A stretch of 64,000 nucleotides of DNA from a bacterium. Lineage in GTDB: Bacteria; Patescibacteriota; Patescibacteriia; Patescibacteriales; XYC2-FULL-47-12. The DNA is taken from contig JAUYLZ010000018.1 of NCBI GenBank assembly GCA_030698385.1, positions 42,744-106,743 of the forward strand, written 5' to 3'. Positions 1 through 48,566 of this stretch are shown one piece after another. The notes under the pieces are model-generated. The model was given only the letters and a program-made list of their open reading frames with translations, was not told the origin of the DNA and did no database searches. How positions within the stretch are numbered: the first letter of the stretch is position 1; every line of letters starts with the position of its first letter. The position numbers and the translations under genes are program-made.

Positions 1-769
1 TTAGATAGATTACATCCGAAACATCTTTGACTGAATGGTAACCGTGAACCAACAAATCCCTAACTATTTTAACAAGTGAATCAACTGGATCAAGAAAGGT
101 CGCGTGGGGGCCAATACTGCGAGCAATTTGATGTTTAATGCAGTTAAAACATGTGCAGGCAAGTATTACCGTATCAGACAACACTGATTCATACGCCGAA
201 AGTTCATCGGCTATCTCCTTCTTACCCTTGTTCGTGTTGAAACTTGCAGAAGCGACCGCACATTCGGATCTGGTTCCAATAATTTCTGTCAGCATTTTTG
301 GGGAGACCGGTCTGAGCGTCTCCTGATAAAACCCAGAGTTGATGGTCGATAACGTACCCATTATCGCAACATTCTTATTTGTTATTTCTGACGCATAGTC
401 ATGTATTAATTTCTTAAAACCATCAACCATGGATAATACTTTTATCTGAGTATTGTCCTGCATCTCACGAGTATGAAAATAAATGATACTTGCAGTATTA
501 CAAGCAAGGATAACTAACTTTGGTTTTATTGTTCCATTAATACATAGAGTAATCCACGAACTAACGATATCCATCAACTGCCCCTCACTTTTCAGACCGA
601 GAGGATTATACTCGGTGTCAGCTAAATATATAACATTGAAATTTCCCAAGAAAGGAAGAGTGGTTTTCAAAACACTTAAACCGCAAGCACACGAATCTAT
701 GATTACCACGGTAGATTTATGGGAATCAAATTTATCTTTTATTCCAATAAGAGACAGTTGAAGATTCAT
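1..769 (-). CDS. Asp/Glu racemase-family protein (MurI-like), C-terminus cut by window edge
   Basis: Absent from the ORF track because there is no in-window stop. My translation from the ATG at 769-767 reads MNLQLSLIGIKDKFDSHKSTVVIIDSCACGLSVL...VILACNTASII...VILACTCFN. It carries the two Cys-containing racemase motifs. The start lies 2 nt after the stop of ORF 772..1785. Confidence 0.6.
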   Translation of the reverse strand, partial: MNLQLSLIGIKDKFDSHKSTVVIIDSCACGLSVLKTTLPFLGNFNVIYLADTEYNPLGLKSEGQLMDIVSSWITLCINGTIKPKLVILACNTASIIYFHTREMQDNTQIKVLSMVDGFKKLIHDYASEITNKNVAIMGTLSTINSGFYQETLRPVSPKMLTEIIGTRSECAVASASFNTNKGKKEIADELSAYESVLSDTVILACTCFNCIKHQIARSIGPHATFLDPVDSLVKIVRDLLVHGYHSVKDVSDVIYL

Positions 770-771
770 AA

Positions 772-1785
772 TTAAAATGTAGTTAGTTCTTCATCTATAA
801 CAAGTGTCTTCACTTTAGAAACTAAAGGTTCATCTAAATACGGCGATCTATTTTCATTATTCAGGCACTTCAAGAGTCCAGCTTTTGTGGAGATTAAATT
901 GAAAGATATGAACCCACGAATTACAACAATCTCTTTGCAGGTAAGATGTGGTTGTAATTTTCTAACAACGTGATCAGCAAAAGTTTTCTCAAAAATCTGC
1001 CTCTTACTCAAGTAGGAGGCCCAATAGTGGTAAGGGTCCTCAGGAAATTCAGGATAGTGTTTTTTGATTTGAGTGATAATTGAGCTCTTCAACATATCAA
1101 GCATAGTAATCCTTTCATTAATTGAATTTAATTCATAAGAACCCACCAACAGTGCGTCCCTTAAACAGTCTATATCTTGTTGTGATAAATAGTTAAGTTG
1201 CTCCAATTGCCTGAATATCCATTTATGATGTGGCATCTCTTGTTCATTGAGAATAAATAAAGCTTCTAAGAGAAGATTAAGGCCGTCATTGATTAATAAA
1301 TGGGCACTCTCTGGGTATCCTCGATGAAAAGAATTTACACTATGAAAGTTAACCCTCCAATAATACTGATTGACGATTTCAACTAAGCGATTAAAGTCTT
1401 TTTTCTTGTCTCGCTGTAATTTATGCTTCAAAAGCTCTGTAATTAAGCCCTCATGCTCATAAACGATGATTCCGTTTGCATACGCATATTTTTTCTCATC
1501 ATTCCACGTTGTCTTAAATTCTTCCGTCATTATCTGTTGGGATAGATTGAATTCAACATCGACCCCATCAAGGTGTATGTGAAAGCTAAATGGTGGGAGA
1601 TAGCTTTCAGCAGGTACCTTCTCTAGAAATACACTTATATCAATATCGGAGTATTCATCTAAAAAATCACGTTTGCCCACGCCACCAAGCAACACTATCC
1701 CGACCACCTCATCTTTTTGTTTCAGCTTATTTGTAAAAGATGTAACAATATGATCATATTTCCATTTAATGTTTTTGGTATTCAT
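772..1785 (-). CDS. Pol-beta superfamily nucleotidyltransferase with helical C-terminal domain
   Basis: Track ORF of 337 aa. N-terminal GIVLLGGVGKRDFLDEYSDIDISVF matches the G[GS]x9-13DxD NTase signature. The substrate is unknown. Confidence 0.6.
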   Translation of the reverse strand: MNTKNIKWKYDHIVTSFTNKLKQKDEVVGIVLLGGVGKRDFLDEYSDIDISVFLEKVPAESYLPPFSFHIHLDGVDVEFNLSQQIMTEEFKTTWNDEKKYAYANGIIVYEHEGLITELLKHKLQRDKKKDFNRLVEIVNQYYWRVNFHSVNSFHRGYPESAHLLINDGLNLLLEALFILNEQEMPHHKWIFRQLEQLNYLSQQDIDCLRDALLVGSYELNSINERITMLDMLKSSIITQIKKHYPEFPEDPYHYWASYLSKRQIFEKTFADHVVRKLQPHLTCKEIVVIRGFISFNLISTKAGLLKCLNNENRSPYLDEPLVSKVKTLVIDEELTTF

Positions 1786-4307: not shown

Positions 4308-5468
4308 TCATGAAAGAACAGAGTGGGGACAACCGGGATGAATAATCGGCTGTTCATATAAGTCTTTATTTTTAAAATAGCTGAATGCTCTAGCCCACAT
4401 ACGACAAATTTTTTGGCATCCGGCGCACCCCGTGTTTTCCCGCCGGACATTTCTAAAATTACGAAATGCGTCACTAGACCAAATTGCATCCAAAGTACTA
4501 GTTAAAACGTTACCCCCTAACAATTCAGTAACGCCGTCAAAATATGGAAACGGATAACAATCACCGTTAGCGCTCACATACATAAAGAGGCGTGCTCCTA
4601 TTTCCGTGTGCCATTCCACTGGCCAAGAGTAACTACTGATTTCACCTTTGTCAAAGGGATGAAGAATAATTAGGTTATTCTTTGCAGCGCGAAGCTTATT
4701 GATCACCGACCATGACTGGAAGAGCACATCGTTAGCAAGCTCGTCCGTAATTTTAGAACGACCATTGAACACTTGACGAGCTAACTTCCAGCTGGAAACT
4801 CTGCCTCGCAGATACTCTGCAATGTCAATCAAATCATTAATGTTGGACTGGTCTAATGTAGTAGTTACTGATAATTTTGCCCATTCCGGTTTTGACGACC
4901 ATAAGTAGTCAAGTGCTTGTTGTAGAGCGTCCCACATTTTTTGCTTGCCAACCCAGCGATTAAAGTTCTCCGCAAAAGAATCCATAGAAATTTGGATGGA
5001 AAAAAAGTAGCGCCAGAGCTCAGACGCTAAGTCTTGCCTCTTGCCAATAGCAACTCCATTGGTTAGCAGTTTCTGCTCAAAACCTAACTCATGGGCAAAA
5101 TTAACAAATTCCAAAAAATTCTTTCTGGTAAAAACTTCTCCGCCAGACCATTCAATTTGTAAGACCCCCCATGCTTGCAAAGCAGACAATAAATCTTTAA
5201 TTTGTTGTTCGGTCATTTCTTTTGGCAGCGGATTGCCTGAATTGACAAAACAATGAGGACAACCAAGATTGCAACGGTTGGTAAATTGAATCTGCACTTC
5301 AATAGGGACTGACATACCGTTGAATACTTGACTGGTTGGAATACTACATAACGAAGTGTCGCAATTGATTTTATTAGCATCGTCAAGGCAATAAATGCGC
5401 CCTTTGTGTGAAAACAGATACTTTTTCACTGATGGCTCAAAACGAAACAATTCTACCATAATCATCAC
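4308..5468 (-). CDS. radical SAM protein with C-terminal SPASM/twitch-like Cys cluster
   Basis: CNLGCPHCF (CxxxCxxC) occurs about 65 aa from the N-terminus. C-terminal features are GDCYPFPY...GCAGCQKIC...GCPH. The likely true start is MVELF at 5459, 6 nt after GAGGTG. It has its own TTGACA/TAAATT promoter upstream. Confidence 0.8.
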   Translation of the reverse strand: MMIMVELFRFEPSVKKYLFSHKGRIYCLDDANKINCDTSLCSIPTSQVFNGMSVPIEVQIQFTNRCNLGCPHCFVNSGNPLPKEMTEQQIKDLLSALQAWGVLQIEWSGGEVFTRKNFLEFVNFAHELGFEQKLLTNGVAIGKRQDLASELWRYFFSIQISMDSFAENFNRWVGKQKMWDALQQALDYLWSSKPEWAKLSVTTTLDQSNINDLIDIAEYLRGRVSSWKLARQVFNGRSKITDELANDVLFQSWSVINKLRAAKNNLIILHPFDKGEISSYSWPVEWHTEIGARLFMYVSANGDCYPFPYFDGVTELLGGNVLTSTLDAIWSSDAFRNFRNVRRENTGCAGCQKICRMWARAFSYFKNKDLYEQPIIHPGCPHSVLS

Positions 5469-39207: not shown

Positions 39208-39278
39208 GCCTCGTCTGTCGGGCTGCGGGGAATTGAACCCCGGCTACAGGACCCCCAGCCCTGCGTACTACCATTATA
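39208..39278 (-). tRNA. tRNA-Pro (anticodon GGG)
   Basis: CGGGCTG TC GTAT AATGGTA GTAC G CAGGG CTGGGGG TCCTG TAGC CGGGG TTCAATT CCCCG CAGCCCG A. 71 nt, no CCA encoded. Confidence 0.8.
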
Positions 39279-39368
39279 CGACAGCCCGATGAACAGTTAA
39301 TTTCATAATAAATCTTAGCACAATTTTATAAAAATAAAACCCACCTAAAAAGATGGGTTTTTTAATGA

Positions 39369-40523
39369 TTAACAAATTATTTTTTCAATGCGTTCAAGAC
39401 CGGCGCGCAACTGATTCTCACTCACCGCGCAGGTGATACGACAGCAATTGTCAAAATCGCCAAAAGCAATTCCCGGGACAACGGCGACATTGGCTTGGTT
39501 AAGCAAGTGCTCGGCAAATAGAATTGAATTGATTCCGTTTTTTTCATTCATAAACGGAGAAAAATCAGGGAAGGCGTAAAAACCGCCGTCAGCGCCGCCG
39601 CAAAAAATGTTTAACCTTTTAAACCAACACCACAACAGTTCTCTTTGTTTGGCATAGCAATGAATCAACGGCTCTTGATTAAGCGCCTCGACCGCCGCGC
39701 ACTGTCCAATGCTATTTGGGCAACCGGAAAATGTTTCTAAGTACAGCGTAACTTTTTGCGCCAACTCCGCCGGCATAATGCCGTAACCGATTCGCCAGCC
39801 CGTCATTGCGTACGCCTTGGAAAATGATCCGATAATGACCGCGTTTGGATCAAATCGTAAATAAGACTGTTCAAATCCGACCGGATAATAACATTCGTCA
39901 GAAATAACGGCAATGCCGGCCGTTCCCTGCCGATACCGCTTGGCCAGCTGGCTGATCTCTTTTACGACCGAATCGCTGTAAACGGCTCCAGTCGGATTAT
40001 TTGGCGTATTTAAAAGCAAGCAAATTAAGCCAACAAAACCGTTGGCAAGCAACGCTTGTAAATAACGCTCCATTTCACTGGTGACTGGGACAAAATTTTT
40101 GTCACACTCCAACAAATAAACCTTCCCTCCTAGCGATTTGATTCCAAAAAAGTAAGGCGGGTAATGCGGTGTCGGCATCAGCACCGGCTGATCCTGATCA
40201 ATGAGCGTCCAAAATACCGCTGTCGCGACGCTCTTGGCGCCATTGGAAATAACCACCTGTTCCGGTTTAACGCGGTACCTTTGAGCGATACCGGCGCGCA
40301 ACTCAATAGAGCCGCTGGCCGGCGTATACCTGGTTTGATGCAAGTTAATCGCTTTTTGAGCGTGCCTCTCAATTGCCTCAGGCGTATTAAGAAAAGATTC
40401 GCCCACTCCCAGATTAATAATCTCTCTTCCGTCTGCCTGCAAAGACTTAATTTTTTTCAATAAATCCTGCAATGGCGATGGTTCCAAATATTTGCTACGG
40501 AAACTAAACTGCGTTGACATCAC
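39369..40523 (-). CDS. class I/II PLP-dependent aminotransferase (aromatic/aspartate type)
   Basis: SFSKAYAMTGWRIGY Lys motif and NPNNPTG. Last gene after the PDT and PDH genes. Confidence 0.8.
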   Translation of the reverse strand: MMSTQFSFRSKYLEPSPLQDLLKKIKSLQADGREIINLGVGESFLNTPEAIERHAQKAINLHQTRYTPASGSIELRAGIAQRYRVKPEQVVISNGAKSVATAVFWTLIDQDQPVLMPTPHYPPYFFGIKSLGGKVYLLECDKNFVPVTSEMERYLQALLANGFVGLICLLLNTPNNPTGAVYSDSVVKEISQLAKRYRQGTAGIAVISDECYYPVGFEQSYLRFDPNAVIIGSFSKAYAMTGWRIGYGIMPAELAQKVTLYLETFSGCPNSIGQCAAVEALNQEPLIHCYAKQRELLWCWFKRLNIFCGGADGGFYAFPDFSPFMNEKNGINSILFAEHLLNQANVAVVPGIAFGDFDNCCRITCAVSENQLRAGLERIEKIIC

Positions 40524-40546
40524 TTTTTCTCCTTTACATTTAAAAT

Positions 40547-41257
40547 TTAAAGAACTTTATTTTTTACTGACTGTATCGCTCTGACAAACTTACTAATTTC
40601 AGTTCTGGCGTAAGGATTGTACTGTATCATATCGGTAAACAGTTGCCAAGTGTCTTTACTAACATGATCGTTAATGGCCAACATTCTGTCAAAACCGGGC
40701 GTTTTGATCTTTTGATCTTTGATATTGGCGGCGCTAAGAGCTCGGCCGATAAAATGAACCAAGGCTAAGCTGCTTGCCGCCTGCCGGTCGTGATCCGACG
40801 GCGTGGTGATAATAATTTTTAAACCAAGACTCCTAAAAACCGCCTTTACTTTAGATAACATTTTTTTATCAATGGCAATCGGGCAAAGGACGATTTGCAG
40901 GTTGCGCAAACCAAATTTGGCGCTGTCCGGCCCAAACATCGGGTGCGTTCCTAAAATGTTTACGTCCGCGGGCAAATGTTTTCGCAACCACTCGCAAGGA
41001 TACACTTTTACCGAGGCCACGTCCATGATCACGGCGCCGGGCTTGAGCTTATTGCTGATATTTTTAATCAGACTCTCAAGTTTGGAAATAGGCACGGCCA
41101 AAATTATCCAATCCATTTCAGGCAGTTTTTGCAGGGTAGTAACTTTATGCCGGCAATTAACTTTTTTGTTGGCAATAATAAAAATCTGACCGTATGGCGC
41201 GAAAATTTTTGCCGCTAATTTTCCAAATCGACCGAAGCCGATAATGCAAATATTCAT
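40547..41257 (-). CDS. tyrA: prephenate/arogenate dehydrogenase
   Basis: MNICIIGFGRFGKLAA Rossmann start, DVASVK and HPMFGP. Confidence 0.75.
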   Translation of the reverse strand: MNICIIGFGRFGKLAAKIFAPYGQIFIIANKKVNCRHKVTTLQKLPEMDWIILAVPISKLESLIKNISNKLKPGAVIMDVASVKVYPCEWLRKHLPADVNILGTHPMFGPDSAKFGLRNLQIVLCPIAIDKKMLSKVKAVFRSLGLKIIITTPSDHDRQAASSLALVHFIGRALSAANIKDQKIKTPGFDRMLAINDHVSKDTWQLFTDMIQYNPYARTEISKFVRAIQSVKNKVL

Positions 41258-41258
41258 A

Positions 41259-41825
41259 CTATTTCTTGGCAGCCAAAATAAATGTCGTAAAGTTGAACTT
41301 CAAATCCTGAATGCTCTCTTCAAGTATTTCTAAGTCATACAATTCAGCCGCGCGTTTGGGCGCGATGACCGCAGCATTGGATGGCAATACTCCGGCGGAC
41401 AAATCTTTGGCTGCCTGCGCCGTGTCGCTCCACTCAATTAATTCAGCGCCTTGCCAACGCCTTTTTAAATACATACGGCATTGTTTTAAAGCCTGATCAT
41501 GAGATGCAATTTTTTTTATATCTTCTTTAGCGACTCCTGGCAAAGCCATTAAATTGTGCTTAACATCAATTTCGAAGATATTTTCAATTGAAAAAGTATG
41601 TTTAGCCATAGCGTAAATCGCTTCATATACTATACCTCCGTTTGAGTTTTCAATCGGAAAAACTCCTCTGTCAATTTTGCCGCCAATTAATGAATTTAAA
41701 ACATTTTCAACACTGATTAAATATCTTAATTCATAATCAACGATATTGTTTTTTTGGCAATAATATTGCGCGGCTTCTTCGGAAAAACTGCCCTCACTGC
41801 CGGACACGCCGATTGTTATATGCAT
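41259..41825 (-). CDS. pheA: prephenate dehydratase domain protein (no ACT domain)
   Basis: 188 aa. GSEGSFSEEAA and VFPIENSNGGIV PDT motifs. Ends before any regulatory ACT domain. Confidence 0.8.
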   Translation of the reverse strand: MHITIGVSGSEGSFSEEAAQYYCQKNNIVDYELRYLISVENVLNSLIGGKIDRGVFPIENSNGGIVYEAIYAMAKHTFSIENIFEIDVKHNLMALPGVAKEDIKKIASHDQALKQCRMYLKRRWQGAELIEWSDTAQAAKDLSAGVLPSNAAVIAPKRAAELYDLEILEESIQDLKFNFTTFILAAKK

Positions 41826-41908
41826 ATTTTTTTTAATTATTAAATAATTGTATTAGTAAAGGAATAAGGGGCAGACGGGAAAAATCTGCCCCAAAAAGAA
41901 CATTCGCG

Positions 41909-42151
41909 TTAAGCAACCTGTTCAATAAAATCTGAACTGCAATCCAATACTTTTACTATACCGATTTTCACTTTTTTTTCAAATCTTTCAATGGTTTCAA
42001 TATCGCTGATCGCAACCTCAGCGAACAGCTCCGGATGCTGTTCATCATAATAAATGAGCAGGCCAATGTTTTCCGCAGCTTTTGCGTAATTAATTAAATC
42101 GCTAAAAGTTGCTTCATTATTCAGTTTCTCTAAATTCCGCCATAAAACCAT
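41909..42151 (-). CDS. hypothetical 80-aa protein
   Basis: Start moved to MVLWRNLEK (AAGGAG, then 8 nt, then ATG). The track uses an upstream TTG. Confidence 0.4.
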   Translation of the reverse strand: MVLWRNLEKLNNEATFSDLINYAKAAENIGLLIYYDEQHPELFAEVAISDIETIERFEKKVKIGIVKVLDCSSDFIEQVA

Positions 42152-42170
42152 TATATTATCTCCTTTGTAA

Positions 42171-42344
42171 CTACTTATAGTTTCTGACAAAACTCCAACT
42201 TCTGCGTCCCTTGAATAAATTTTTACACTTGCTTCGCTTCTGATGCCAATACCTAGCTCGGTTATTTTCTTGATTCACGTCTTCCGTGCTTTCTTGAGTA
42301 AATTCAGTCTCCACATCTTGTTCTTTGCTACATTTTTTCTGCAT
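42171..42344 (-). CDS. hypothetical 57-aa protein (acidic N-terminus, basic C-terminus)
   Basis: Not in the track. AAGGAG, then 8 nt, then ATG: MQKKCSKEQDVETEFTQESTEDVNQENNRARYWHQKRSKCKNLFKGRRSWSFVRNYK*. Confidence 0.35.
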   Translation of the reverse strand: MQKKCSKEQDVETEFTQESTEDVNQENNRARYWHQKRSKCKNLFKGRRSWSFVRNYK

Positions 42345-42432
42345 TTGATATTCTCCTTCTTGCCCCGTCCTTTAGGCGGGGTTCATTTTTTTATTTTTTT
42401 AAAAGAACAACTCCCTTTCTTGAACTAAAATA

Positions 42433-42623
42433 TAAAAAAACTGACCCCCTTGCGGAAGCCAGTTTTTTTGTTTCCCTAATGATGTATTATAACTTATAAA
42501 ACATCACCAAAAACTGCACTTCCGCGCTGGAAGCCGTAAAAGAAAAAGCTAAAGCTTAATACAGTTTTTGCTAATGTTTTAATCATATGTGGATATTCTA
42601 ACACAGATTTTTAAAAAAAACAA
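42433..42623 (-). promoter_or_regulatory. Phe-type leader-peptide transcription attenuator
   Basis: TGtTAGAAT extended -10 (42595-42600) sits 8 nt before the AUG. Antiterminator GCGGAAG-TG-CAGTTTTT pairs with AAAAACTG-G-CTTCCGC. Terminator ACTGGCTTC cgcaag GGGGTCAGT plus U7 (42433-42466). Confidence 0.6.
42494..42586 (-). CDS. Phe/Tyr-rich leader peptide (30 aa)
   Basis: MIKTLAKTVLSFSFFFYGFQRGSAVFGDVL*. Not in the track. No SD; the AUG is 8 nt after the -10. Confidence 0.55.
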   Translation of the reverse strand: MIKTLAKTVLSFSFFFYGFQRGSAVFGDVL

Positions 42624-42746
42624 GCGGTTGTCCACACCGCGCTAAAACAGAGCTTATTACGGTATAAATAAATCAATTAATTAAAGCTAATATTAAAATA
42701 AAAAACCACTTTTTAAACAAAAGTGGCTAAAAAATTAGATTACAAT

Positions 42747-43508
42747 TTAATTAATCGGCTGCAACTTCTCTGGATAAGTTGCGTTGATCAATGCGCGCGC
42801 TAAAATCAGCGTCGGATCAATCATTATTGTTCCATCAATTTCTTTTTCGGTAATCGCTAATGGTATTTCCGTGCAACCTAGAATTACCGCTTGCGCTCCT
42901 TTTTTTTGCAAATGCTGAACGCCTCGCAAAAATTCGCCGCGCGCTTTTTCGGTCACCGGACTGGATTGCGCTTTGATGCCGTAAGTCTCATCGTAAATTG
43001 CGTTATGAACCATATTCTGCACATCCTCATCAAGCACAACTACCTTAAATCCTTTTGCTTCAAGAATGGCGGGATAGACTTTTGATCGGAAAGTTCCGAT
43101 TGTGGAAAGAACGCCGATGGTTTTGACATCAGGATAGTTCGCCGAAACATATTTCGCCACCTCCTCAATCATATTCAGAAGTGTTCCGGAAAAACCAGTT
43201 TTTATCAACCGCTCATTGATAACATTAAATATCTGCGGTGAATGCATTGTGTTGCAAGGTATGCCAATAACATCAGCTCCCGCGACATACATGCGCAAAA
43301 TAATATCAGCAACTGCCGGCGCGGGATTATCAACTTTTCCCAACAAAAATTGGGTACGATCATTAATGCGTTCAGAAAATGACAGGTGTAGTACTGGCAG
43401 ATGCTCCTGATCATTTAACGCTTGAGTGTTATCCAGAATTTTTTTGTGCAAATCAAGTCCGGCGTATGGGCCGACTCCGCCGACTATTCCAATTACTTTT
43501 TTTTCCAT
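42747..43508 (-). CDS. aspartate racemase (Asp/Glu racemase family)
   Basis: IGIVGGVGPYAGLDL, IPCNTMH and ILGCTEIP. Start moved to MEKKVIG (AGGAG, then 7 nt, then ATG). Own promoter TTGCAA-17-TATGAT. Confidence 0.8.
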   Translation of the reverse strand: MEKKVIGIVGGVGPYAGLDLHKKILDNTQALNDQEHLPVLHLSFSERINDRTQFLLGKVDNPAPAVADIILRMYVAGADVIGIPCNTMHSPQIFNVINERLIKTGFSGTLLNMIEEVAKYVSANYPDVKTIGVLSTIGTFRSKVYPAILEAKGFKVVVLDEDVQNMVHNAIYDETYGIKAQSSPVTEKARGEFLRGVQHLQKKGAQAVILGCTEIPLAITEKEIDGTIMIDPTLILARALINATYPEKLQPIN

Positions 43509-45446: not shown

Positions 45447-45656
45447 AAAAAACAAAAAGCCACCCGTTTGGATGGTTTTCTACAACTTTTATACGTTTAT
45501 ATATGAATTAACGCCTTACGCTTTCGCGTTTAAACCATCCAAAAAATCTCGGCCAAGGAGGCTGAGCAAGAGGCTTAAAAGCAATAAGCTTTTGCTAATT
45601 TTTTGCATGATTTTACTCATATATAAATATCCTAACATATTTTTAAAAACTGTCAA
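45447..45656 (-). promoter_or_regulatory. Leu-type leader-peptide transcription attenuator upstream of leuA
   Basis: TTGACA-16-TAGGAT, with the AUG 8 nt after the -10. Antiterminator TTTGGATGGTTT (in the CDS, plus 45532-45543) pairs with AAACCATCCAAA (45467-45478). Terminator CCATCCaaacGGGTGG followed by CUUUUUGUUUUUU. Confidence 0.65.
45516..45620 (-). CDS. Leu-rich leader peptide (34 aa)
   Basis: MSKIMQKISKSLLLLSLLLSLLGRDFLDGLNAKA*. Nine Leu in an 11-residue stretch, using TTA/TTG/CTT/CTC codons. Not in the track. Confidence 0.6.
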   Translation of the reverse strand: MSKIMQKISKSLLLLSLLLSLLGRDFLDGLNAKA

Positions 45657-46171
45657 ATCGCACGCTGTTGCTGTAGTATTTTTACCTGTTTTTCCAATTC
45701 TTGGTACTTTTGTTTTAATTCCTGAACATCACTATTCATTGCCGCCACATCCTCAGATTCCATTCTCATAATACGATCAATTTTTGCCTCAACGCGCGCC
45801 AAATCATTCCGAAATGTTTCCATTTCTGTATGAATCATGCTCAATTCATGTTTAACAAAAACCATGTCCTGCTTTAAACCAGAAACATCTTCTTTCAAAC
45901 CAGAAACATCTTCTTTCAAACCAGAAACATCTTCTTTCAAACCAGAAACATCTTCTTTCAAGCCAGAAACATCTTCTTTCAAACCAGAAACATCTTCTTT
46001 CAAACCAGAAACATCTTCTTTCAAACCAGAAACATCTTCTTTCAAACCAGAAACATCCTGCTTTAAAACACCAATATCTTTTTTAATTGGCTCAAGCGCA
46101 ACATCAAGCGCCGCCTCAATACTGACGTCAATTACTTCTTTGATTGATTGTAGATCACTTTTATCTAACAT
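45653..46171 (-). CDS. coiled-coil protein with DVSGLK[EQ] heptad array
   Basis: 172 aa, nine consecutive 7-aa units, helical flanks. Confidence 0.6.
   Translation of the reverse strand: MLDKSDLQSIKEVIDVSIEAALDVALEPIKKDIGVLKQDVSGLKEDVSGLKEDVSGLKEDVSGLKEDVSGLKEDVSGLKEDVSGLKEDVSGLKEDVSGLKQDMVFVKHELSMIHTEMETFRNDLARVEAKIDRIMRMESEDVAAMNSDVQELKQKYQELEKQVKILQQQRAI
45876..46064. repeat. 21-bp tandem repeat, about 9 units
   Basis: AAACCAGAAACATCTTCTTTC repeated head to tail. One unit has AAG for AAA; the last has ..CATCCTGCTTT. Confidence 0.9.
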
Positions 46172-46710: not shown

Positions 46711-46901
46711 AAAAAAGTCCCGCCGGGGCGGAACTTTTCTCTGTTGAATTATTTATGCTTTTATATATGAGAAAAACTTCCACCCCCAGGCTGGCTAATA
46801 ATAATACTAATAATACTTGCCCCGCCTTTATGGCTGGGGATTGTTTTGCGGAAATTTTTCATAGTTACTTATTATATTATCATAATAAAAATGTTTGTCA
46901 A
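46711..46901 (-). promoter_or_regulatory. Ile-type leader-peptide transcription attenuator
   Basis: TTGACA-16-TAATAT, with the AUG 11 nt after the -10. Antiterminator GGGGTGGAAgTTTT (CDS, plus 46773-46786) pairs with AAAAgTTCCGCCCC. Terminator GTTCCGC(C)cc(G)GCGGGAC plus U6 (46711-46734). Confidence 0.55.
46761..46862 (-). CDS. Ile-rich leader peptide (33 aa)
   Basis: MKNFRKTIPSHKGGASIISIIISQPGGGSFSHI*. Five ATT codons within six positions. Not in the track. Confidence 0.5.
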   Translation of the reverse strand: MKNFRKTIPSHKGGASIISIIISQPGGGSFSHI

Positions 46902-47003: not shown

Positions 47004-47783
47004 ATGTTTATAACTATTATCAATGACTGCCAAGACGATAACGCGCGCGCTCGACAATTAACCCGCGTTTCAACATTATTTAAGGTTCCGGCCAATTTTG
47101 TCAGTGTCAAAAATGACCTGGAAGCGGCCGGAAATATTATTGACATTCTGGATGCGTCGCAGAAAAAAACCGGCGCAGTCTTGGTAAATGTCGCACCGCG
47201 CAACGGCTCTGCCAAACACTGGAAAAACGGTACGCCTTTCGCTTATTTTTATTATGGCAAAACTTTGGCGCTCGCCTCGGTTGACGGCCTTACTCTGTCG
47301 TTGGTTAAAAAATTAAAACTGACCAAATTCGTAAATATCCTAGATCTGGAAAAAAGTGTAAAGCTCATGGAAAAAAAAAAGAAACTATCAACATCTGAGG
47401 TTGGTAAAATTATCAATACGCAATTCCGCAGTTTTGAATTCCTGCCACGCGCGGCCAGCTGGCTCACACAGGGTTATAAATTGCCTTTTGAAAAAATTAG
47501 TATTGAAAAAATTTCTGACGCGCCAAATGCCATTTGGTGGATTGATAACTTCGGCAACTGCAAAACAACTGTCTTAAGCGCCGAATTAGCAGAAATAAAA
47601 CTTATAAAAAAACTGCAAAAACTTCCCTGCTATCCACGGCTTAAAGATTTGCCGGATAACAAAACCGGTTTAATCGCGGGCAGTTCCGGCATTAATAATA
47701 ACCGCTTTGTTGAAATAATGACTCAAGGCGACAGTACGGCCAAGAAGTTAAAACTAAAGAGTGGTGAAGTTATCGCAAAATAA
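47004..47783 (+). CDS. divergent DUF62 / SAM hydroxide adenosyltransferase-like protein
   Basis: From my recall of archaeal DUF62 sequences, WWIDNFGNCKTTV matches IYIDDFGNVILNL. Likewise NRFVEIMTQGDSTAKKLKLKSGEVI matches [23 protein letters not shown]. The N-terminal TDFG motif is replaced by NDCQ. Confidence 0.5.
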   Translation: MFITIINDCQDDNARARQLTRVSTLFKVPANFVSVKNDLEAAGNIIDILDASQKKTGAVLVNVAPRNGSAKHWKNGTPFAYFYYGKTLALASVDGLTLSLVKKLKLTKFVNILDLEKSVKLMEKKKKLSTSEVGKIINTQFRSFEFLPRAASWLTQGYKLPFEKISIEKISDAPNAIWWIDNFGNCKTTVLSAELAEIKLIKKLQKLPCYPRLKDLPDNKTGLIAGSSGINNNRFVEIMTQGDSTAKKLKLKSGEVIAK

Positions 47784-47839
47784 AAGAGCTAATCATTTGA
47801 CTAGCTCTAAAAAGAACGAAACTAAACCGCGCTAAATTT

Positions 47840-48154
47840 TTAATTGGTGATCTGCTTTAGCTGATCAGCCGACATTTTTTCACAAATTTCTTTAGCCAGA
47901 ATAATATCAACTGGACCGCCATTTAAATTTAATGACTGGATTGCCTTTTTTACTGTTATAAAAACAACTTCCTCTTCTCTTGGGTGATAGTCGGCGAACG
48001 TATAAAGCAACTTCCTGTCTCCGGTCACAACCATTTTAATGCCCGCTTTGTAGCAATAATTAGATTTGTTAACCGGAAAACCTTTTCGAACTCTAGCTTG
48101 CGGTCTAAACTGTGTTACTCCATCATCAAACATGATTTCAATTTTCATCATCAT
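47840..48154 (-). CDS. hypothetical 104-aa protein
   Basis: Track ORF. GGAG lies upstream. Immediately follows the 56-aa ORF. Confidence 0.4.
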   Translation of the reverse strand: MMMKIEIMFDDGVTQFRPQARVRKGFPVNKSNYCYKAGIKMVVTGDRKLLYTFADYHPREEEVVFITVKKAIQSLNLNGGPVDIILAKEICEKMSADQLKQITN

Positions 48155-48169
48155 CTTTCTCCTTTTTTT

Positions 48170-48340
48170 TTAAAATCTAACGGTAGCGACATTTTCTTGC
48201 AATCTTCGTAAATGATAGCCCAACTTTCTTTGTTCGTAACTATCTTTCTTATTCAATCTTTCAAGCTTGTGTTTAATCTGAAAAATCTGTCGACTGCATT
48301 CCTCAACTTTTACTACTACTGACGGTGTCACTTCGCGCAT
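48170..48340 (-). CDS. hypothetical 56-aa protein
   Basis: Not in the track. AGGAGG, then 7 nt, then ATG: MREVTPSVVVKVEECSRQIFQIKHKLERLNKKDSYEQRKLGYHLRRLQENVATVRF*. Confidence 0.4.
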   Translation of the reverse strand: MREVTPSVVVKVEECSRQIFQIKHKLERLNKKDSYEQRKLGYHLRRLQENVATVRF

Positions 48341-48364
48341 GGTACTTCCTCCTTGATAAATTTT

Positions 48365-48566
48365 AAAAGATCAAACTAAAGAGGCCACCCTTTTGGATGG
48401 CCTCAATTTTTATTTTGCTAATATATTAAAACGATAAATGCCATCCAAAAAATGCCGAAGCAATAACTGCTACGACGACTGCGAGTACTACTGCTAAAAC
48501 AGCGTTAATTTTTTGGATAGCTAAACTCATATTTATATATTTTAGCTGATACTAAAATTTTGTCAA
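48365..48566 (-). promoter_or_regulatory. Val/Ala-type leader-peptide transcription attenuator
   Basis: TTGACA-16-TAAAAT, with the AUG 8 nt after the -10. Antiterminator TTTTGGATGGC (CDS, plus 48440-48450) pairs with GCCATCCAAAA. Terminator GAGGCCATCCaaaaGGGTGGCCTC (48381-48404) followed by UUUAGUUUG. Confidence 0.6.
48426..48530 (-). CDS. Val/Ala-rich leader peptide (34 aa)
   Basis: MSLAIQKINAVLAVVLAVVVAVIASAFFGWHLSF*. Seven Val and seven Ala. Not in the track. Confidence 0.5.
   Translation of the reverse strand: MSLAIQKINAVLAVVLAVVVAVIASAFFGWHLSF

Follow-up and report, generated by a model that had tools for sequence, protein, structure and literature searches.

A candidate leader-peptide attenuator reading phenylalanine and tyrosine codons upstream of aromatic-pathway genes in Patescibacteria

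The minus strand of the 64,000-nucleotide stretch of DNA that we analysed (the window) carries, at 42623-42433, what is very probably a ribosome-mediated Phe/Tyr leader-peptide transcription attenuator. We are confident that it functions as such for at least the two small genes that follow it, ORF57 and ORF80. The PDT-PDH-aminotransferase genes beyond these (39369-41825) are its probable distal targets. The sensor most likely responds chiefly to how much charged tRNA-Phe is available, and less strongly to tRNA-Tyr. The evidence consists of the sequence elements themselves, their statistical excess over chance, the conservation and covariation of the same elements in related loci, and their genomic association with genes of the aromatic pathway.

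Layout and folding of the leader region

The elements of the leader region are listed here in the direction of transcription.

42595-42623, minus strand: promoter read from the sequence, with a -35 element TTGTTT (42623-42618), a 17-nt spacer and an extended -10 element TGtTAGAAT (42603-42595)
42594-42587, minus strand: ATCCACAT, bridging the -10 element and the leader ATG
42494-42586, minus strand: leader ORF of 30 codons plus TAA (42496-42494), with its ATG at 42586, encoding MIKTLAKTVLSFSFFFYGFQRGSAVFGDVL
42562-42583, minus strand: segment 1, the 5' strand of helix 1:2, ATTAAAACATTAGCAAAAACTG, from the MFE structure, the RNAalifold consensus and the covariation count
42571-42562, minus strand: segment 1a, GCAAAAACTG, codons 6-8, a part of segment 1
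42530-42553, minus strand: regulatory codon run, codons 12-19, TTT AGC TTT TTC TTT TAC GGC TTC, encoding FSFFFYGF
42529-42535, minus strand: segment 1b, GGCTTCC, codons 18-20, whose partner is GGAAGT of segment 2
42525-42509, minus strand: core of segment 2, GCGGAAG-TG-CAGTTTTT
42497-42525, minus strand: extended segment 2, in which the core runs on into GGTGATGTTTTA; its partner is either segment 1 or segment 3
42478-42508, minus strand: apical hairpin of the antiterminator, GGTGATGT...ACATCATT, enclosing the TAA stop
42470-42477, minus strand: purine motif AGGGAAAC, conserved, with the family consensus AGGGAAAAC
42452-42467, minus strand: segment 3, AAAAACTG-G-CTTCCGC, overlapping the 5' terminator arm
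within 42449-42440, minus strand: segment 4, GGGGTCAGT, followed by exactly seven T (42439-42433)
42433-42469, minus strand: intrinsic terminator, ACTGGCTTCC / GCAA / GGGGGTCAGT, followed by U7

The codon run of the leader, which sits between segments 1a and 1b, contains five Phe and one Tyr in eight codons and no Trp; a sixth Phe is codon 26. Among the 446 short ATG-ORFs in the six frames of the whole window, only two reach six or more aromatic residues in eight, and the second of these is antisense within a gene.

Upstream on the same strand, a gene for an Asp/Glu-racemase-like protein ends at 42747, and two terminator-like hairpins (42728-42704 and 42640-42624) lie on its 3' side. Between the -10 element of the leader promoter and the ATG there are 8 nt, a spacing from which we infer a leaderless mRNA, or one with a 5' UTR of at most 5 nt. 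Exactly the same distance from -10 hexamer to ATG is found in three of the four leaders of the window. Reading of the sequence before the leader ATG gave no Shine-Dalgarno (SD) motif, while ORF57 and ORF80 have strong ones. The family promoter block, cTTGAttttt...TGcTATAAT-TATCCACA(G)GTAG, is conserved and precedes the leader in dozens of related loci. The ATG follows one base after CCACA in the window and in L031, L008a, L096 and L134, and three bases after it in L098; given this short distance, the mRNA of these loci is predicted to be leaderless or to have no more than 5 nt of 5' UTR. In most other family members, the UTR is about 30 nt long and contains a small hairpin at its 5' end and an AU-rich stretch, but no SD. 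It is plausible that translation of the leader begins from a leaderless or AU-rich start, and mycobacteria offer a precedent for leaderless sensor ORFs (bioRxiv 10.1101/834739).

The 176-nt leader region folds with -55.5 kcal/mol, compared to -30.4 +/- 3.6 kcal/mol for dinucleotide shuffles (z = -6.9, none of 200 as low), and its MFE structure combines helix 1:2 with the 3:4 hairpin. In the RNAalifold consensus, helix 1:2 comprises about 20 bp, in which codons 2-9 (IKTLQKT) pair with codons 24-30 (VFCGVLT), and GGAG of segment 2 forms a second short helix with either the first aromatic codons or 1b. Segment 2, which lies in the 3' half of the ORF, is more complementary to the 5' terminator arm than shuffles are (z = -3.2, p = 0.006). 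Pairing 2:3 amounts in the window to 7 + 8 bp plus the apical hairpin, which is conserved in relatives with both sides changing, as read off the alignment. Taken singly, the energies are -31.3 kcal/mol for 1:2, -27.9 for 2:3 with its apical extension and -14.0 to -19.4 for 3:4, and this order of stability (1:2 > 2:3 > 3:4) is the classical hierarchy.

An earlier note on this DNA had named segments 1a, 1b, 2, 3 and 4, the U7 tract and the 30-codon ORF, and all of them are found on the minus strand where it had placed them. The terminator that it described, with three G.U pairs and U7, is confirmed as well, except that we count 10 bp instead of 9 in its core (ACUGGCUUCC/GCAA/GGGGGUCAGU, -14.0 kcal/mol); with the flanking A/U pairs the stem reaches up to 16 bp in our scan and -19.4 kcal/mol. 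The extent of segment 1 had to be redrawn: 1a and 1b are both present, but the segment really belongs to the long helix with codons 24-30.

In classical attenuators, the decision between the alternative structures is kinetic. Over the whole transcript of the window element, the terminated conformation is favoured in every case, by 13-16 kcal/mol, so that here, too, the decision would have to be kinetic. We modelled the effect of the ribosome with a simplified footprint, masking 29 nt and withholding segment 4 to mimic a polymerase just past segment 3. In this model, a footprint on F16 yields the 2:3 hairpin as the MFE structure, with 13 of the 14 nt of the 5' terminator arm paired, and 2:3 is also the MFE structure in most of the relatives modelled with a ribosome in the middle of the aromatic run. 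A footprint on the last Phe (F19) gives no antiterminator, and without a ribosome the MFE structure is again 1:2 plus 3:4. The UAA lies 13 nt past the core of segment 2, inside both the extended segment and the apical hairpin. When a ribosome sits at the stop, its footprint covers the part of segment 2 that lies 3' of the core, together with the 5' strand of the apical hairpin, and reaches only the last nucleotide or two of the CAGUUUUU core; in the simplified footprint model, the terminator is then favoured by 12.7 kcal/mol. This placement of the stop agrees with a non-stalled ribosome blocking segment 2, although it does not decide the matter.

In the mechanism that we propose, transcription would begin a few bases 5' of the ATG, and a ribosome would translate the 30-codon leader as the polymerase moves on. 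When Phe is plentiful, this ribosome would reach the UAA and cover the 3' part of segment 2; when there is no translation, segment 1 would pair with segment 2. In either case segment 3 would remain free to form the 3:4 hairpin, and transcription would stop at the U7 tract, at about 42433. When Phe-tRNA is scarce, the ribosome would stall in FSFFFYGF, between 1a and 1b, and keep helix 1:2 open, whereupon segment 2 could pair with the emerging segment 3 (-27.9 kcal/mol) and no terminator would form. The polymerase would then enter ORF57 and ORF80 and probably pass the weak hairpin at 41892-41868 into the PDT-PDH-aminotransferase genes. The conserved AGGGAAAAC motif has no role in this model; among the Phe codons and GUUUU we found by eye only weak, non-compelling pairings for it.

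Conservation and covariation in related loci

Homologues of the PDT protein (188 aa) with 60-73% identity are found in 80 genome loci, most of which are labelled Parcubacteria, Moranbacteria, Falkowbacteria or other Patescibacteria (CPR), and the rest 'bacterium' or other taxa. From these labels, and from the 'MAG: bacterium' match of ORF80, we conclude that the window derives from a CPR genome. About 20 of the 80 have an aromatic-run short ORF and an intrinsic terminator upstream of PDT, and in these PDT-anchored loci the leader family always lies upstream of PDT and on its strand. The leader peptides of the relatives, for example MIKTLQTTYFFFYFWFALPRRLVVRGVLTT (L019), MTIIKTLQKTAYFYFWFFFGSLRRAVFCGVLTK (L048) and MNNTIRKNLFFFSGFFFFNKRLVFVAIGD (L002), follow the consensus MxKTxQKT-[F/Y/W run]-RRxVFCGVLT, and each of the family members examined has the terminator. 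Six copies served to build a covariance model, which gives the window element 137 bits and finds further copies at 101 (L007), 77 (L001), 69 (L079), 57 (L028), 43 (L002) and 38 bits (L017). In L001 and L007 (plus strand), the RNA scaffold and the terminator are kept and the aromatic run and any start codon are lost, which indicates that the scaffold can persist without a sensor ORF.

Independently of PDT, we scanned metagenomes with two conserved motifs as anchors (TTGTGRTGTTTTRAY...AGGGAAAAC) and obtained 70 loci, 55 of them with complete leader ORFs, of which 45 are distinct. At least five aromatics in eight codons occur in 42 of these 45 leaders; the remaining three have Leu runs on the same scaffold. 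The core composition of the metagenome leaders is F 203, Y 70 and W 24, with a median length of 31 aa. The description as a Phe attenuator thus holds for the window in that its leader has a Phe run, and is refined in that the window copy adds Tyr and the runs of the family mix all three residues, by which the family is predicted to sense all three aromatic amino acids.

Covariation in helix 1:2 was evaluated in a model-fitted alignment of 15 sequences. Here 91.4% of the cells are paired, compared to about 50% in controls with a slid register, and changes on both sides are seen in 14 of 26 pairs, compared to 5.4 +/- 1.7 in shuffles, none of which reached 14 in 500 trials. That the conservation at both ends of the peptide extends to third codon positions is explained by this RNA helix, whose two strands encode them. 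For 2:3 and 3:4 we dropped column-wise covariation, as both the MAFFT and the model-fitted alignments were one column out of register between loci, and instead tested 2:3 in a register-free way, by per-locus shuffles and by swapping partners between loci. The pairing is significant against shuffles of the same locus (p <= 0.05) in 15 of 17 loci, with a sixteenth, L009, at p = 0.052. In the partner swap across the 17 loci, cognate pairs of segments 2 and 3 have a mean of -18.6 kcal/mol and non-cognate pairs one of -11.4 kcal/mol (permutation p <= 5e-5). The terminator stems themselves vary widely among loci (CTTCC, CTCCTC, GATCTC, GCCC and others); since cognate pairing nevertheless holds, the matching segment 2 changes together with the stem. 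The 1:2/2:3/3:4 reading advanced in the earlier note is therefore backed by homologous loci, by compensatory changes in 1:2, by the locus-specificity of 2:3 and by adjacency to aromatic-pathway genes, described in the next section.

The window contains three further units of the same design on the same strand.

45620-45516, minus strand: Leu-run leader, directly upstream of a LeuA-like gene
46862-46761, minus strand: Ile-run leader, upstream of a 115-aa orphan
48530-48426, minus strand: Val/Ala-run leader, upstream of two orphans

In relatives, aromatic leaders occur in tandem, and the same scaffold or one like it also carries runs of Leu, Ile or Asn codons. The attenuator reading of the Phe leader is strengthened by cognate pairs in the same genome, such as that of the Leu run with LeuA.

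Downstream genes and competing explanations

The following features lie downstream of the leader, again in the direction of transcription.

42171-42344, minus strand: ORF57, the first gene 3' of the attenuator, an orphan with a strong SD (AAGGAG)
41909-42151, minus strand: ORF80, an orphan with a strong SD (AAAGGAG)
41868-41892, minus strand: hairpin GGGGCAGA-TTTTTCCCG-TCTGCCCC with the tail TTATTCCTTT, perhaps a weak terminator separating PDT from the small ORFs
41825-41259, minus strand: PDT, with the catalytic domain only and no ACT domain (Pfam)
41257-40547, minus strand: PDH (Pfam)
40523-39369, minus strand: class I/II aminotransferase (Pfam)

This layout is the one that the earlier note had described; its link from the leader to PDT, PDH and the aminotransferase is, in the window, an inferred one, with two orphan ORFs and the hairpin in between. 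The distance from the U7 tract to the PDT start is about 610 nt. The gene order PDT-PDH-aminotransferase is conserved in relatives, and the composition around the operon gave no sign of a foreign island. In Pfam searches, the window PDT is not fused to a chorismate mutase and lacks the ACT feedback domain, so that control at the RNA level may be its main regulation. Searches of ORF57, ORF80, ORF56, ORF104 and ORF115 against Pfam, PHROGs and PADLOC returned nothing significant, and the sole protein-database match of ORF80 is the same genome's own protein ('MAG: bacterium', 93 aa as called). In an all-against-all BLAST of 228 upstream ORFs, 166 were singletons. The hairpin at 41892-41868 was also considered as the remnant of a second leader, and it has no similarity to the scaffold.

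PDT begins 30-60 nt after the leader terminator in three relatives (L002, L009, L034). Elsewhere among the PDT-anchored loci, the next gene after the leader is a DAHP synthase (L022, L079), or small ORFs intervene, followed by a DhnA/DeoC-type aldolase (one ORF, L048) or by a chorismate mutase immediately before PDT (L031, L008). Most relatives have one to four unrelated small ORFs and then a strong hairpin 50-70 nt before PDT; these hairpins are analogous, and not homologous, to the one at 41892-41868. The leaders from metagenomes are found directly before PDT with an ACT domain (L087, L096, L099), before a short PDT (L084, L090, L133), before DAHP synthase (L091, L092, L094, L096, L102, L126, L137) and before a DeoC-type aldolase (L121, L131). 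Of these assignments, L087, L092, L096, L102 and L131 are confirmed by Pfam, and the rest were made by tblastn or by reading translations. A sensor of F/Y/W codons placed before the first common step and before the Phe/Tyr branch makes physiological sense.

The alternative that fares best accepts the attenuator and confines its regulon in the window to ORF57 and ORF80, with the hairpin at 41892-41868 ending the unit and PDT, PDH and the aminotransferase being transcribed independently. The hairpin scores as terminator-like (9 bp, 6 of them GC pairs), yet its tail, TTATTCCTTT, is a poor U-tract. Between hairpin and PDT (41826-41867), a promoter scan found no promoter-like site, which makes read-through plausible, whereas several relatives do have promoter-like sequences just before PDT. 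Comparisons with other loci likewise point in both directions. The sister Val/Ala (48530) and Ile (46862) attenuators precede only small orphan ORFs and then a terminator, and a recognisable aromatic-pathway gene is present in only about 13 of the 42 metagenome loci that extend at least 1.2 kb downstream, the others having SD-led small ORFs. In the PDT-anchored loci, on the other hand, the leader always lies upstream of PDT and on its strand, and its place directly before PDT in L002, L009 and L034 indicates that PDT was the ancestral target. We consider a regulon of the two small ORFs alone to be a possibility of some weight, if the less likely outcome, and lean modestly towards the PDT-PDH-aminotransferase genes being truly under the attenuator in the window, reached by read-through.

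Sensing by a trans-acting factor on the RNA (a T-box-like tRNA sensor, a TRAP-like protein or a metabolite riboswitch) in place of the translating ribosome appears improbable to us. An ATG-to-stop frame with an aromatic run has been maintained in 42 of the 45 distinct metagenome leaders despite heavy nucleotide divergence, and in paralogues the run is swapped as a block for Leu, Val or Ile codons, as a codon-reading sensor predicts. Such a factor might explain the invariant unpaired AGGGAAAAC between helix 1:2 and the terminator, the two loci with a scaffold and no intact ORF, and the leader's lack of an SD, but in the window and in 14 related loci neither the T-box nor any Rfam family other than tRNA comes up to its threshold.

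Least probable of all is that the 30-codon ORF is an ordinary gene for a small hydrophobic protein (a toxin or membrane peptide), followed by its own terminator and without a sensor function: the peptide is indeed hydrophobic, its N- and C-terminal residues are conserved family-wide, and the sister Val/Ala-rich ORF (48530-48426) resembles a single transmembrane helix, but the conserved ends are the strands of helix 1:2, with compensatory nucleotide changes that include third codon positions, the central run keeps its F/Y/W composition and not its sequence, Leu runs occupy the same scaffold at other loci, the terminator arm of each locus finds its complement in the 3' part of its own ORF, and with 8-11 residues the aromatic stretch is not long enough to cross a membrane.

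Returning to the ribosome-mediated attenuator, its wider role may be seen in two ways. More tentatively than the attenuator itself, we suggest that the Phe leader could belong to a modular scaffold for sensing starvation, present in many copies across the Patescibacteria. Its fixed parts would be a conserved promoter, an ORF that is leaderless or lacks an SD, a long helix 1:2 and a terminator, while the codon run would be exchangeable (aromatic, Leu, Val/Ala, Ile, Asn) and the direct cargo would often be hypervariable orphan small proteins with strong SDs in place of biosynthetic enzymes. In that case ORF57 and ORF80 would be the primary targets. If this were true, these bacteria, which depend on a host for amino acids, would employ arrays of attenuators (a 'ribulon') through which the supply of amino acids governs small proteins with effector or regulatory roles. 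The association with biosynthetic genes places the patchily distributed DAHP synthase, PDT, PDH and aminotransferase genes under predicted amino-acid-responsive control, suggesting that they are of real use for Phe/Tyr supply.

Patescibacteria have tiny genomes with few known regulators, and to our knowledge almost nothing is known about their gene control. The present analysis predicts a concrete and widespread RNA switch in this group and implies that transcription and translation are coupled in it. With more than 60 diverse sequences and clear covariation, the family could enter RNA family databases. A scaffold with a swappable run is also a natural design for amino-acid sensors and might provide an inducible element for those few CPR strains that can be cultivated; a recent CPR review names an inducible system as a need and mentions riboswitches only as a wished-for tool (PMC11665869).

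Relation to known attenuators and leader-peptide systems

At the gathering threshold, Rfam matches only three tRNAs in the whole window and only tRNAs in the 14 related loci. A permissive search of 41800-42760 returned sub-threshold matches, all with E >= 0.07, which comprise Phe_leader and noise. Phe_leader (RF01859) scores 21.4 bits (E = 0.69) at 42435-42561, well short of its gathering score of 55; this weak alignment is full-length and falls exactly at the coordinates of the element. By these searches, no curated RNA family covers the element or its relatives, which would constitute a new family of a known attenuator type. A full-text literature search for attenuators or leader peptides in CPR/Patescibacteria found none, returning only RiPP 'leader peptides' and unrelated papers.

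The trp, his, leu, thr and ilv attenuators follow a four-segment logic, and their regulatory codons match the pathway that they control. The window element shares both properties, and further versions for Leu, Ile and Val/Ala occur in the window. It departs from the classical attenuators in that a single conserved combination of promoter and RNA scaffold serves for several kinds of codon run, and in that many copies precede only small orphan ORFs and not biosynthetic operons. Comparative surveys are available for the classical leader-peptide attenuators (PMC1262725, PMC2965389).

With pheL-pheA of E. coli and other gamma-proteobacteria, the window element has in common a short ORF with Phe codons, a set of mutually exclusive hairpins (pause/anti-antiterminator, antiterminator, terminator) and prephenate dehydratase as a target, in the window a probable one. 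There is no detectable homology between the two (21.4 bits, against the gathering score of 55). The window leader has 30 codons, where the E. coli pheL leader has 15, and mixes Phe with Tyr, and in relatives also with Trp. It lacks an SD and is probably leaderless, and its codon run is located in a bulge between the two halves of segment 1. Further differences are the host, which belongs to the Patescibacteria, and the PDT, which has neither the chorismate mutase fusion nor the ACT domain. Reports of pheL come almost exclusively from gamma-proteobacteria, with a few candidates in Bacteroides and Desulfobacterium (PMC3082878), and a survey of Actinobacteria reported no Phe or Tyr attenuators (PMC1262725).

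Mycobacterial leaderless polycysteine sORFs (the 'ribulon', bioRxiv 10.1101/834739) resemble the window element in having an SD-less sensor ORF at or near the 5' end of the mRNA, in occurring as several independent copies per genome, and in responding to amino-acid supply through ribosome stalling, as we predict for the leader. In contrast to these sORFs, the window element carries a canonical intrinsic terminator, pointing to transcriptional control, and the residues that it would sense are aromatic.

Amino-acid leaders of the window

Besides the Phe attenuator upstream of the prephenate dehydratase (PDT) and dehydrogenase (PDH) genes, we found three further attenuators in the window, listed here with the terminator of one of them:

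45460-45656, minus strand: Leu attenuator
46715-46901, minus strand: Ile attenuator
47780-48566, minus strand: Val/Ala attenuator
48404-48381: terminator of the Val/Ala leader

The Leu attenuator has the promoter TTGACA-16-TGtTAGGAT, with the ATG at 45620 beginning 8 nt downstream. Its leader ORF, MSKIMQKISKSLLLLSLLLSLLGRDFLDGLNAKA, has Leu at 9 of the 11 codons in the run, spelled with four different codons (TTA, TTG, CTT and CTC). The terminator, CCATCC-aaac-GGGTGG, is followed by a T-run, and its arm is complementary to TTTTTTGGATGG. About 170 nt 3' of this attenuator starts a LeuA-like gene (45280-43616), the next gene being Asp/Glu racemase-like.

In the Ile attenuator, the promoter (TTGACA-16-TGaTAATAT) is followed by a leader ORF at 46862-46761, MKNFRKTIPSHKGGASIISIIISQPGGGSFSHI, with Ile at 5 of the 7 codons in the run. 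An antiterminator of about 17 bp (z = −5.5 against shuffled sequences) shares sequence with the terminator, AAGTTCCGC-cccg-GCGGGACTT. Downstream lies only an orphan ORF of 115 aa (46636-46289), and then a second terminator.

The Val/Ala leader was matched with 32 bits by the Phe-leader covariance model, which was built from six copies of the Phe leader family. Its ORF (48530-48426) is MSLAIQKINAVLAVVLAVVVAVIASAFFGWHLSF; segment 2 of the leader RNA, TTTTTTGGATGGC, pairs either with segment 1, GCTATCCAAAAAA, or with segment 3, GCCATCCAAAA. Its targets would be just two orphan ORFs, of 56 aa (48340-48170) and 104 aa (48154-47840), beyond which the next gene is convergent.

Leaders and leader remnants in relatives

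Among the PDT-anchored loci of related genomes we found degenerate copies of the Phe leader and short ORFs with a run of another composition, which are listed here with the unpaired motif of the leader family:

Window 42470-42477: unpaired motif AGGGAAAAC, here as AGGGAAAC, between helix 1:2 and the terminator
L001 1205-1341, plus strand: degenerate leader copy
L007 994-1135, plus strand: degenerate leader copy
L031 1586-1672, minus strand: Asn/Asp-run short ORF
L017 1209-1274, minus strand: Asn/Asp-run short ORF

Most close family copies keep the motif, which is missing in the minus-strand copy of L007, in L028 and in L002. It has no role in the attenuation model. Possible functions are the binding of a factor or participation in a leader RNA that acts in trans. 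The two degenerate copies retain promoter, helix 1:2 and terminator, the aromatic run being deleted and the start codon gone. Of the two, only the copy in L001, whose PDT is the closest to that of the window, retains the motif; the corresponding sequence in L007 is AGTTAAAAC. L007 also has an intact leader copy in the opposite orientation (683-855, minus strand, 101 bits).

Tandem attenuators occur in L008 (3735-3830 and 3929-4009) and L079 (3039-3197 and 3393-3544; also 2281-2367), with further instances in L019 (3753-3833) and L050 (172-258). Some arrays consist of two serial aromatic leaders ahead of DAHP synthase or PDT; in others, the aromatic leader is immediately preceded by a Leu-run leader, such as MKQANNKNLLLSLLLLLPDRVACFDS, and the small ORFs that belong to it. 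The Asn/Asp-run ORFs (for example ...LKNDNNNGNKD... and ...NINNNDNGNDN...) are accompanied by terminators and significant antiterminator complementarity, and are possible Asn-sensing attenuators.

The interval between leader and PDT, and its surroundings

Window 41868-42344, L005, L006 and L076 about 4480-4990, and many other loci: small-ORF region
Window 42362-42382, plus strand: terminator-like hairpin, GCCCCGTCC-TTTA-GGCGGGGT, then TCATTTTTTTATTTTTTT
Window 39217-39288, minus strand: tRNA-Pro GGG (ARAGORN)
L031 7846-7916: tRNA (Rfam match)
L008 8089-8159: tRNA (Rfam match)

From the leader terminator to PDT, the loci carry hypervariable small ORFs with strong Shine-Dalgarno (SD) sequences, followed by a strong hairpin. 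These ORFs show no homology to one another (of 228, 166 are singletons); CxxC...CxxC motifs occur in a subset. Between the sister genomes L005 and L006 the ORF differs, and of the hairpin only the base is retained (GCAATG...CATTGC). The region looks like a hot spot of cassette replacement.

A tRNA gene lies directly 3' of the operon or of the small-ORF region in the window, L031 and L008. Several metagenome loci have the same tRNA-like sequence, recognised solely as a recurrent reverse-frame ORF, and some also have putative recombinase genes, as judged by sequence. The region may be an integration hot spot.

The hairpin at 42362-42382, between the attenuator and the SD of ORF57, the first ORF after it, reads correctly on the plus strand only, and no plus-strand gene of the window ends there. 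It may be an insulator against antisense transcription or the 5' hairpin of the ORF57 mRNA.

The window also encodes a protein with repeats:

45653-46171, minus strand: 172-aa coiled-coil protein

It includes a tandem array of the heptad DVSGLKE, with about 11 near-perfect copies, which corresponds to a 21-nt repeat in the DNA.

The window PDT (41259-41825, minus strand; 188 aa) is a catalytic domain alone, without an ACT domain, and the short PDH (40547-41257, minus strand; 236 aa) has the N-terminal PDH domain as its sole detected domain. In other CPR loci, PDT has 277-290 aa and includes an ACT domain, or PDH is long, at about 342 aa.
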